Assembly: GCA_002269645.1 (NCBI GenBank)
Contig: NIVC01000374.1
Location: 1 to 64,000, forward strand
Origin: Macrostomum lignano
Lineage: Eukaryota
Length of the DNA stretch: 64,000 nucleotides
Direction: 5' to 3'
Positions within the stretch are counted from its first letter, which is position 1. Each line of letters opens with the position of its first letter. Below, in pieces: positions 10,333-12,490 of the stretch. The position numbers and the translations under genes are program-made. A model generated the notes under the pieces. That model had not been told where the DNA came from. It made no database searches and saw nothing but the letters and a program-made list of their open reading frames with translations.

Positions 10333-10932
10333 ATGGAAACTAAAAAGATTTGTAGTCGATGTAAAGAAGAGAAACCAATGACTAAAGATTTTTTTAGATG
10401 GAGAAATGATTCAAAAAAATTTAGAAATGATTGTCGATCTTGTGAGAAAGTTATATCAAAACTGTGGAATAAAAACAATAAAGAATATATAAAAAATAAA
10501 TATCACACTGATGAAAATTACAAACTTATTATCACCTCACGAAATAGAATAAATCAACTATTAAAATCAAATAATGCTCGAAAAAATAATCATACTATTG
10601 ATTACCTTGGTTGCTCAATTGAATTCTTTATTGATTGGTTAAATTTCACAAAACATTATTATGTTCCAAAAGACTATGGTGGTGCTTTACATATTGATCA
10701 TTTTATTCCTGCTTCTTCATTTAATTACAAAGACGAAGATCATATGAAAAAGTCTGAACATTGGACAAATAAAAGATACTTAGCTGCTATTGATAATAAA
10801 ACTAAATTTGTTAAACAACCAACAATTGAAGAATTTGCAAAACAATTGGTGCTATCATGTATTTTTAAGGCTATAAAAAATGAGCAATCATGCGACGCAT
10901 GCGAACCGAAGGTTCGACCAATTAGTATTTGA
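10333..10932 (+). CDS. HNH (endonuclease VII-like) putative homing endonuclease with N-terminal Zn finger
   Basis: CSRC...CRSC zinc finger; RNRINQLLK..T.DYLGCS; LHIDHFIP...HWTN..L..DN.TK matches the HNH pattern common in large DNA viruses. Confidence 0.82.
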   Translation: METKKICSRCKEEKPMTKDFFRWRNDSKKFRNDCRSCEKVISKLWNKNNKEYIKNKYHTDENYKLIITSRNRINQLLKSNNARKNNHTIDYLGCSIEFFIDWLNFTKHYYVPKDYGGALHIDHFIPASSFNYKDEDHMKKSEHWTNKRYLAAIDNKTKFVKQPTIEEFAKQLVLSCIFKAIKNEQSCDACEPKVRPISI

Positions 10933-12490
10933 AGGAGGATTGTTAGATGTTCAAAAAGGATTAACAAGCTTACCACCAATATTTACTACTGGGAGGTATA
11001 CGGGTGAGCTACACCTACCATCAATGAACTTCACAGGTTATCCCGTGGCCTGAGTGGTAGAAGCAAAGCTACTGCTAGTCACTATTAGTGGCGATGTCTC
11101 CAAATTGCGTGAAACCCGTCATACAGCTTCAAGTACCACTTCAATTGAGAAATCTTTTGAAGGAACAGAGGTAACTCCTCTTCCCAAAGGTAAAAAGCTT
11201 GAAGACACGGTGGCAATGCGCAGCCAAGCTCCTAAGTATTTTAAATATAAGGAGAAGGTTCAGAGAGCAGACGGAGATGGGCGGTAATTATCGCCGCTTA
11301 AGGTGTGCTCCAGCCTCTTTCGAAAGATTGAGGGTAAACTACCCGGCACTCGCTTAGATTTGAGATTAAATCCTGACAATACTCCAAAATCTGATTCAAT
11401 TCCAATAAATGGGATTGATTGGTTAGCATACTATCACGACTTAGCATATAGAGATGCTGACAAGAACCCGCCCGAGGAAGCATTAAGATTAAAACATGAA
11501 GCCGATCAAAAAATGATTCAAGGATTAGATAACTTGCAGGGATTATCAGTAGGTCAGAGATTAACTAGGTGGATGGTTAAAAAGATTCTACAATCTAAAG
11601 TTAAATTTGGTTTGGGAATTAATTATAATCAACATGGAAATAATTGTGTTGAGTGTTTGTTGTTAAGTGGCGGTGGGTTAAGTTCTGATGAGGCAAAGAT
11701 TCTTCATAAAGAATATCGAAAACCTAAATTTTATAGAAAAATCATGAACTTCAAAAAGAATGAAATTTGGTATGCTGATTTAATGTCTATGCCGAAAGAT
11801 CTGGGATATAAATATATCTTAACCATATTAGATGGTTTTACTCGATACGCGTGGGCTGTTCCTTTGAAATCCAAAAAAGGAGAGGATGTTGCTGCTGCTT
11901 TTAGAAGTCTTGGAGAAAAAAGCGAACGTTTGTGTGTTGACGAAGGAAAAGAATTTTACAATCCTCATATGTATAAATTATATCATTTTGAAAAAGGACA
12001 AGAAAGGAAAAAAGACGCGAATGGGGAGTATATTAATAAAATTTATTCTATTTATGGAGAAAGCAAAAACGCATTAATAGAAAGATTTAATCGAACTTTA
12101 GGTAAGAAATTATGGTTTCAGTTTAGTCTTAATGGTAGCCAAAAGTGGGTAAAAATATTACCAGACGTAGTGAAAGATTATAACAATTCATATCATTCGG
12201 CGATAAAGATGACTCCTCAACAAGCTTATAACAATCCTGAAAACGTTAAAGTTACTTTTGGAAAATTTGAAAAAAATAAAAAGAAATCTTTTAAGGTTGG
12301 TGATTCTGTTTTTATCTATAAATGGAAAGATAAGTTTGAAAAAGGAAGAAAAGGATATTGGAAGATAAGTGAGAAATTTACTATCAGTAAAGTTTTAAAT
12401 ACCAATCCTACAACCTATATAATTGCTGATAAGGACGGTGAAGAAATATTGGGTTCGTTTTATGAGAACCAACTAATATCAGCGAACTAA
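10880..12490 (+). CDS. PLA2 (parvovirus VP1u-type)-retroviral-like integrase fusion; exon 1 10880-11038, exon 2 11342-12490, 435 aa spliced
   Basis: Exon 1 ends GELHLPSMNFTG and exon 2 starts PGTRLDLRLNP...YYHDLAY...ADQKM (PLA2 Ca-loop and HD/D). Then WYAD, CVDEGKEF, IERFNRTL (DDE) and the Polinton INT C-terminus GSFYENQL. Confidence 0.92.
11039..11341 (+). ncRNA. Group I self-splicing intron, IC1-like (P5abc with A-rich bulge and GAAA tetraloop)
   Basis: P1 CAGGU 11034-38/GCCUG 11048-52 with U.G at the splice site; P3 11095-101/11273-79; P4 11105-11/11217-23; P5a 11127-33/11198-204; P7 GAGAGCA 11263-69/UGCUCC 11306-11; P8 11280-86/11289-95; P9.0 AG/CU. Removal restores NFTG-PGT. Confidence 0.93.

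Follow-up and report, generated by a model that had tools for sequence, protein, structure and literature searches.

The zinc-finger HNH endonuclease gene that sits beside an ORF-lacking group I intron in a Polinton of Macrostomum lignano is, on comparison of sequences among copies of the element, inherited independently of that intron; the likely partner of the intron is instead a nuclease resembling Eco47II, with GGNCC as its predicted cutting site, whose gene takes the place of the HNH gene in other copies. The HNH gene is real and conserved, yet is probably not what moves this intron.

A Polinton with an interrupted PLA2–integrase gene

The window (the whole 64,000-nucleotide stretch analyzed here) comes from contig NIVC01000374.1 of the 764-Mb eukaryotic assembly of M. 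lignano, and opens with a Polinton whose relevant features are as follows.

1..13330, strand not assigned: Polinton copy, AT-rich, truncated by the contig start, no GGNCC throughout
9644..10198, + strand: flank gene upstream of the nuclease slot, 184 aa here and 223–227 aa in other copies, not assigned to any family
10333..10932, + strand: zinc-finger and HNH (ββα-Me) endonuclease gene of giant-virus type, 199 aa without an internal stop, one occupant of a swappable nuclease slot
10351..10443, + strand: zinc finger CxxC…CxxC (C7, C10, C34, C37), from an 87-sequence alignment
10696..10797, + strand: predicted catalytic motif D122-H123, N146, N155, from the same alignment, retained in 62/62 intact copies
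10880..11038, + strand: exon 1 of the PLA2–integrase fusion gene, start ATG at 10880, last codon the Gly of a Gly-Pro pair
11039..11341, + strand: ORF-less group I intron, type A (RF00028), 303 nt, between Gly and Pro codons, terminal A in this copy
11342..12490, + strand: exon 2 of the fusion gene, remainder of the parvovirus-type PLA2 domain and rve integrase

A family search of the ORFs in this Polinton matched PF00665 (rve integrase) and PF04665 (A32 ATPase), and the right terminal inverted repeat lies at ~13074–13330; with a protein-primed PolB (PF03175) in copy C56 and inverted repeats in copies C3967 and C1867, the element has the hallmarks of a Polinton/adintovirus. The PolB and capsid frames of the window's copy are fragmented in the ORF list (some breaks may be assembly errors), and the family search of the Polinton ORFs gave no match confirming the capsid proteins. 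The gene split by the intron encodes a fusion of PLA2 (PF08398, E 2e-7) with rve integrase (PF00665), 424 aa long in the intronless copy L035; this architecture is common among the 45 longer homologs found, and PLA2X is treated in PMC8502044. We also observe PolB proteins bearing an endonuclease VII domain (PF02945) at two loci (L223:5245–7554 and L227:5532–8126), as reported for nematode and oomycete pPolB2; an HNH domain inside PolB has been described as well (10.1101/2023.08.22.554363).

The layout given in the initial annotation holds throughout: an intact zinc-finger and HNH ORF overlaps the first 53 nt of the intron-containing gene, 106 nt separate its stop codon from the intron (~107 nt had been stated), and the intron has no ORF of its own (no + strand ATG ORF of ≥50 aa within 11039–11341).

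A group I intron between Gly and Pro codons

A covariance-model search scores the intron at 60 bits against RF00028 (gathering score 50; E 1.6e-14), a match that a fast gathering scan of the whole window missed. Its ends were set by the natural intronless copies L035, L111, and L112, by P1, which pairs 11034–11038 with 11048–11052 and contains a U·G wobble, and by P9.0, which pairs 11312–11313 with 11339–11340. The Rfam model stops 9 nt earlier, but a 3′ splice site at that point was rejected; it would sit in P9, and both the natural empty alleles and P9.0 put the end at 11341. The P7 guanosine-binding strands are unchanged in 101 of 105 type A copies. The whole-intron folding z of −2.4 is weak on its own. 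In place of the terminal omega-G the window's intron has an A, and the type A copies divide into 77/105 ending in A and 28/105 ending in G; given this preponderance of A, splicing of type A introns may be poor. Group I introns that end in A do occur elsewhere, in Coxiella and in the mitochondria of corals. Contigs of four runs, whose status as RNA is a guess, contained no joint across the intron, a result that speaks neither for nor against splicing.

In L116 (1167–1500) and 22 other loci of the window's family, the same site is occupied by a second kind of group I intron (type B, 30.5 bits against RF00028). Past the structural end of type B the sequence does not continue the PLA2 reading frame, and the 5′ loop of this intron can pair strongly with bases slightly beyond that end, which together suggests that the 3′ splice site of type B is shifted.

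Protist Polinton-like viruses carry ORF-less RF00028 introns of 309–376 nt, plus HNH genes (PMC12220804). The likeness extends to the RNA family, the lack of an ORF, and the Polinton-like setting; in that study, however, the introns lie in a short gene before the capsid gene, and the accessible part of the paper describes neither a nuclease partner nor site avoidance, whereas here the intron splits a PLA2–integrase fusion and mostly has a terminal A.

The HNH protein is of giant-virus type

Across the alignment of 87 sequences, C37, D122, H123, and N146 are invariant and C7, C10, C34, and N155 are at least 90% conserved, such that the His general base following Asp, the structural Asn, and the metal-binding Asn of an HNH/ββα-Me nuclease are all present. 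The protein matches PHROG 1035 “endonuclease VII” over residues 3–129 (E 2.9e-11) and PHROG 2255 HNH (E 3.6e-5); it gave no match in Pfam or NCBIfam and none of meaning by PDB sequence search. A word-indexed homolog search returned one match, a profile search 44,581 representatives at E <0.001. The predicted model (pLDDT 92.6) has its best predicted-structure matches in mimivirus L246 (E 1e-11) and the intron-encoded endonuclease A0A2H4UUB1 of Bodo saltans virus (E 2.4e-9). Solved HNH domains match it weakly (Cas9 HNH, BrxU, and Cap5; E 0.1 or worse, Z 3–4), and in structure comparison its zinc finger resembles the finger at the N-terminus of Hpy99I (Z 5.0 over 42 residues, with rmsd 2.5 and 36% identity).

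An RNA-family scan of the five best viral-contig relatives (16 loci found) revealed, in one of the five (L211:2611–3690, IMG/VR), a group I intron within a capsid gene of giant-virus type; the intron encodes a member of the same zinc-finger HNH family, and a GIY-YIG-like ORF lies upstream. The protein is thus, as first assigned, an intact HNH-type nuclease, and its family includes members encoded in introns of giant viruses. The window's protein has the D-H…N…N motif in common with the giant-virus zinc-finger HNH endonucleases (mimivirus L246, A0A2H4UUB1), from which it differs in being free-standing, in a C-terminal extension that overlaps the next gene, and in falling into at least five allele groups.

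Its proposed likeness to the EndoVII-like enzyme F-CphI, to which the PHROG label also pointed, did not survive inspection of the motifs. The DHHRN family of F-CphI is defined by CX2-4C and a C-terminal CX2C on either side of a central DHDH, together with a conserved Arg (PMC6083498), whereas the HNH protein has no DHDH and no C-terminal CxxC; its DH is followed by F/L-I-P, and both CxxC pairs lie in the N-terminal finger.

The HNH alleles differ mostly in the DNA-binding part of the protein, where dN is 0.19–0.33 as against 0.13 in the catalytic part. Both slot nucleases (the second is described below) are under purifying selection, with median pairwise dN/dS of 0.55 for HNH and 0.32 for the Eco47II-like gene, and intact genes are found in 62/94 HNH and 26/37 Eco47II-like copies of the window's family. 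When the HNH target was sought as an avoided word, no 4–6-mer or 3+3 spaced palindrome stood out once the number tested was allowed for (best P 6e-4 of 832), and a comparison of flanks between HNH and Eco47II-like copies gave no fixed difference marking a nearby HNH target, the largest outside the slot gene being 0.45–0.48. As the DNA-binding part diversifies fastest and no signature of a nearby target appears, the HNH is likely an independent mobile nuclease of giant-virus type.

Distribution of HNH and intron among copies

A search with the exon 2 protein, in which 150 of 481 candidates were scored, led together with an initial set of loci to 143 distinct classified loci: 133 of family 1 (the window's family) and 10 of a diverged family 2, after 18 duplicates and 5 unrelated pattern matches had been dropped (the latter being five of the six matches to a first junction pattern). 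Two of the 133 family 1 loci could not be classified. Among the 94 copies with HNH in the slot (a class that includes five remnants, and whose share is inflated since the first 30 loci were found with a query including HNH), 75 have intron A, 16 have intron B, and 3 have no intron; the remaining 37 copies, with the Eco47II-like gene in the slot, have intron A (30) or B (7) and are never empty. All copies come from one genome and are related, such that these counts are not independent. Slot occupant and intron presence are not significantly associated (Fisher p 0.56, with only three empty family 1 alleles in existence), and slot type is unrelated to intron type (75:16 versus 30:7, p 1.0).

The exact empty-junction pattern occurs at 22 sites genome-wide, 19 in family 2 and three in family 1 (L035, L111, and L112). 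All three empty family 1 alleles, which derive from two lineages, retain HNH in the same place, intact and with the full catalytic motif in L035 and L112; the DNA-binding parts of these alleles are 91–93% identical to those of their nearest neighbors. Of fifteen further HNH loci, 11 have an intron and none is empty; the other 4 break off ahead of the gene. Over 49 copies with intact HNH and intron A, the sequence distances of HNH and intron A are barely correlated (Mantel r 0.08, p 0.12 and 0.11, p 0.05), whereas intron A distance tracks the upstream flank gene, exon 1, and exon 2 (r 0.35–0.38). HNH allele group H4 is found only with intron B (10/10), an intron that occurs with other slot genes too.

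The HNH gene is therefore neither absent from intronless alleles nor co-inherited with the intron, H4 being the exception to the second statement. The co-occurrence check that the initial annotation had suggested turns against its proposed partnership, with HNH at the same locus in 3/3 intronless relatives (a small sample), 37 intron-bearing copies lacking it, and a linkage to the intron weaker than that of the far-side flank gene.

An Eco47II-like nuclease in the slot and inside introns

The other slot occupant, found in HNH's place in 37 of the 131 classifiable family 1 copies and always with the intron, is a free-standing PD-(D/E)xK protein of 167 aa that starts and ends at HNH's positions relative to the flanks. 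PF09553 (Eco47II) matches 11/11 members of its family (best E 4e-7); the free-standing gene falls below the PF09553 cut-off (20.6 versus 25.9 bits) and the intron-encoded form described below passes it. The predicted model (pLDDT 89.7) finds EcoO109I as its best structural match of 48,161 chains (Z 9.6, 166 aligned residues, rmsd 3.8; the next match has Z 6.1). The EcoO109I site, RGGNCCY, contains GGNCC. Eco47II is itself listed as cutting GGNCC (PMC10305163), and PF09553 membership does not fix cutting specificity. The family likeness to Eco47II/Sau96I-type enzymes thus comprises the HMM match in all 11 homologs, EcoO109I (PDB 1WTD) as best structure, and avoidance of the site in the carrier. 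The differences are that the proteins here are shorter (160–167 aa, with no extra DNA-binding domain), that their genes lie within a group I intron or occupy the exchangeable slot of a virus-like element from a eukaryote, and that no cognate methyltransferase was found (no methyltransferase family, C5 type included, among the 45 ORFs of the elements scanned, 20 + 25). The protein likewise had no match in plasmids or phages, and scans of viral contigs with the Eco47II-like and PLA2 alignments found nothing.

In family 2, the same Gly-Pro site has a group I intron (85 bits) that carries the gene for a ~65%-identical homolog. Of 25 loci taken from the homolog search, 2 belong to family 1 and 4 are partial; the other 19 run in the order exon 1, intron, nuclease, exon 2, and L163 brings the complete family 2 loci to 20. 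The same intron-embedded nuclease occurs at the same site in an unrelated JGI metagenome contig (L243). None of the 19 empty family 2 alleles has either nuclease within 1.5 kb, and no HNH match lies beside or inside family 2 introns. The Eco47II-like gene is thus in 0/3 empty alleles of family 1 and 0/19 of family 2, and the intron is in 37/37 copies with the free-standing form (the family 1 comparison being the nonsignificant one given above). The C-termini of the homologs P0003–P0011 read like intron core sequence in 6/9 cases. A tree of the family places the free-standing copies in one clade among intron-type sequences; it has no outgroup and its deep support is weak, and it favors neither direction of movement between slot and intron.

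Family 2 itself (L238:6343–10000, L240:6493–10000) was observed as a ~3.6-kb element in which only the PLA2–integrase gene is recognizable, with no PolB or capsid, and is possibly a Polinton-derived transposon or satellite. A Prim-Pol gene was seen upstream in one family 2 copy (L165/L248).

Loss of GGNCC outside the insertion site

Gly-Pro codons (GGN CCN) always spell GGNCC, and the intron sits between them; Gly-Pro is retained in 40 of the 42 homologs that cover the site (45 examined). The predicted target of the Eco47II-like protein thus coincides with the empty junction, where cleavage is a prediction, and is purged elsewhere. Positions 1–13330 of the window contain no GGNCC, against 14.8 ± 3.9 expected from 200 dinucleotide shuffles, and a maximal-order Markov model gives 7.3 expected in the window's Polinton (P 7e-4). 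No other of 768 spaced 4-letter words is as depleted in the window as GGNCC, which is also the most depleted of 16 NNxNN palindromes in 7/7 family 1 elements, whose counts are 0, 2, 0, 0, 2, 4, and 5 against 7–14 expected. Two elements carrying the Eco47II-like gene have none in 16.7 and 19.2 kb; a third carrier (C56) has 5 in 17 kb, which counts against reading the protein as a GGNCC cutter. Intronless C3967 has 2 in 17.2 kb, one of which is the empty site, and in each empty copy one site is the junction. Family 2 copies with the Eco47II-like intron have 2 GGNCC in 50,282 bases, as compared with 33 in 48,142 bases for the empty copies, 19 of these being the empty site itself. Flanking non-Polinton host DNA keeps the word (O/E 0.63–0.69).

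A candidate mechanism and its alternatives

The likeliest reading of these observations is a scheme in which the Eco47II-like protein, as a GGNCC cutter, would attack any co-replicating element still holding its site. Carriers would escape by recoding every other GGNCC, the intron covering the one site that cannot be recoded; empty alleles would be cut and then repaired from an intron-bearing copy, thereby spreading the intron by homing. Copies with HNH in the slot would keep their intron because the Eco47II-like cutter circulates in the same population, and the HNH, as a free-standing mobile nuclease of giant-virus origin, may compete for the slot with a target other than the empty intron site (a step with less support). 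It counts against the scheme that GGNCC persists in host DNA and that the 45 ORFs scanned include no methyltransferase, as the enzyme would then have to work off the chromosomes or at their expense. In its fullest form, to which we give somewhat less than even credence, the system would be a methylase-less 5-base restriction enzyme in a eukaryotic virus-like element, with self-immunity by site erasure and a ribozyme intron hiding the last site; the enzyme would double as a homing endonuclease, its free-standing and intron-embedded stages coexisting at one site in one genome.

The collaborative homing proposed in the initial annotation keeps its logic, a free-standing nuclease beside the intron being a likely partner, and transfers to the Eco47II-like alternative rather than the HNH. 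That the HNH cuts at or near the empty site and mobilizes the ORF-less intron, as F-CphI does, is decidedly unlikely. Adjacency, the intron in 91/94 HNH copies, the intron-encoded relatives in Bodo saltans virus and L211, and the exclusive pairing of group H4 with intron B all speak for it, and the divergence of the empty copies' HNH alleles in their DNA-binding part means that these could differ in specificity, just as integrated copies may be silent. It must nevertheless contend with empty alleles of two lineages that all carry HNH, two of them intact, with intron-bearing copies that do without it, with the lack of linkage to intron A or of slot type to intron type, and with family 2 introns that show no HNH match; it also leaves the loss of GGNCC without an explanation.

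We regard as unlikely, too, that the Eco47II-like protein partners the intron as a conventional homing endonuclease with a long site, and that GGNCC was purged for another reason such as the restriction enzyme of a helper giant virus. Its embedding in introns is that of a classical homing endonuclease, a 5-base cutter would threaten host chromosomes, which retain GGNCC, and HNH-carrying elements are depleted too; yet the protein is small and has no additional DNA-binding domain, the purged word is exactly that cut by the Eco47II family, and in family 2 the depletion follows the gene. Least probable, and very unlikely in our judgment, is that the two slot nucleases serve to attack host DNA, a helper virus, or rival elements, with the intron a neutral passenger at a conserved site that spreads without them. 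Group I introns do favor conserved sites, and the flanks bear no fixed difference between HNH and Eco47II-like copies that would mark a nearby HNH target. Exchangeable nucleases are, moreover, common in these viruses (10.64898/2026.10.13.758929). What such a reading leaves unexplained is that the intron splits the only obligatory GGNCC, and that introns at this very site in family 2 and L243 have the same nuclease embedded in them.

The likely partnership of intron and Eco47II-like nuclease would depart from the collaborative homing of cyanophage S-PM2, in which F-CphI is paired with an ORF-less intron in psbA (PMC6083498, PMC3984707). Collaborative homing is also proposed for helicase and T5orf172 genes (PMC11296320). 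Relative to F-CphI/psbA, the HNH here fails the co-occurrence tests and has no DHHRN motif; the fitting partner is a PD-(D/E)xK restriction-family protein with a predicted 5-base site and element-wide loss of that site; and the host is a eukaryotic Polinton with free-standing and embedded states in one genome. A literature search covering few subscription journals and no supplements (the intron tables of PMC12220804, possibly relevant, are among the latter) found no paper on an Eco47II-like nuclease with a Polinton intron or on GGNCC avoidance in Polintons. [quoted passage not shown]

Other features of the window

Recurring GC-rich palindromic insertions of ~30 nt, often in frame within genes, punctuate the Polinton (at 750–775, 6413–6440, 7248, 7693, and 10889–10921); the two commonest motifs occur three times each in the Polinton and not at all in the window's other 50 kb, and such insertions are also present in intron A of other copies (333-nt form). 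On the − strand, 3660–5704 is a fiber-like region in which tandem repeats of 19 residues lead into an F5/8 type C (discoidin) domain and then a lectin-like C-terminus, a module that varies between copies. Directly past the Polinton's right end (13370–14590, − strand) lies an LTR retrotransposon Gag-protease ORF with a zinc knuckle and an aspartyl protease. Further along, 27446–41498 forms a 14-kb tandem array (period 20/42, 92–93% matches, 58% GC), probably a satellite, which stays open for 3,600–4,400 codons in all three + strand frames.
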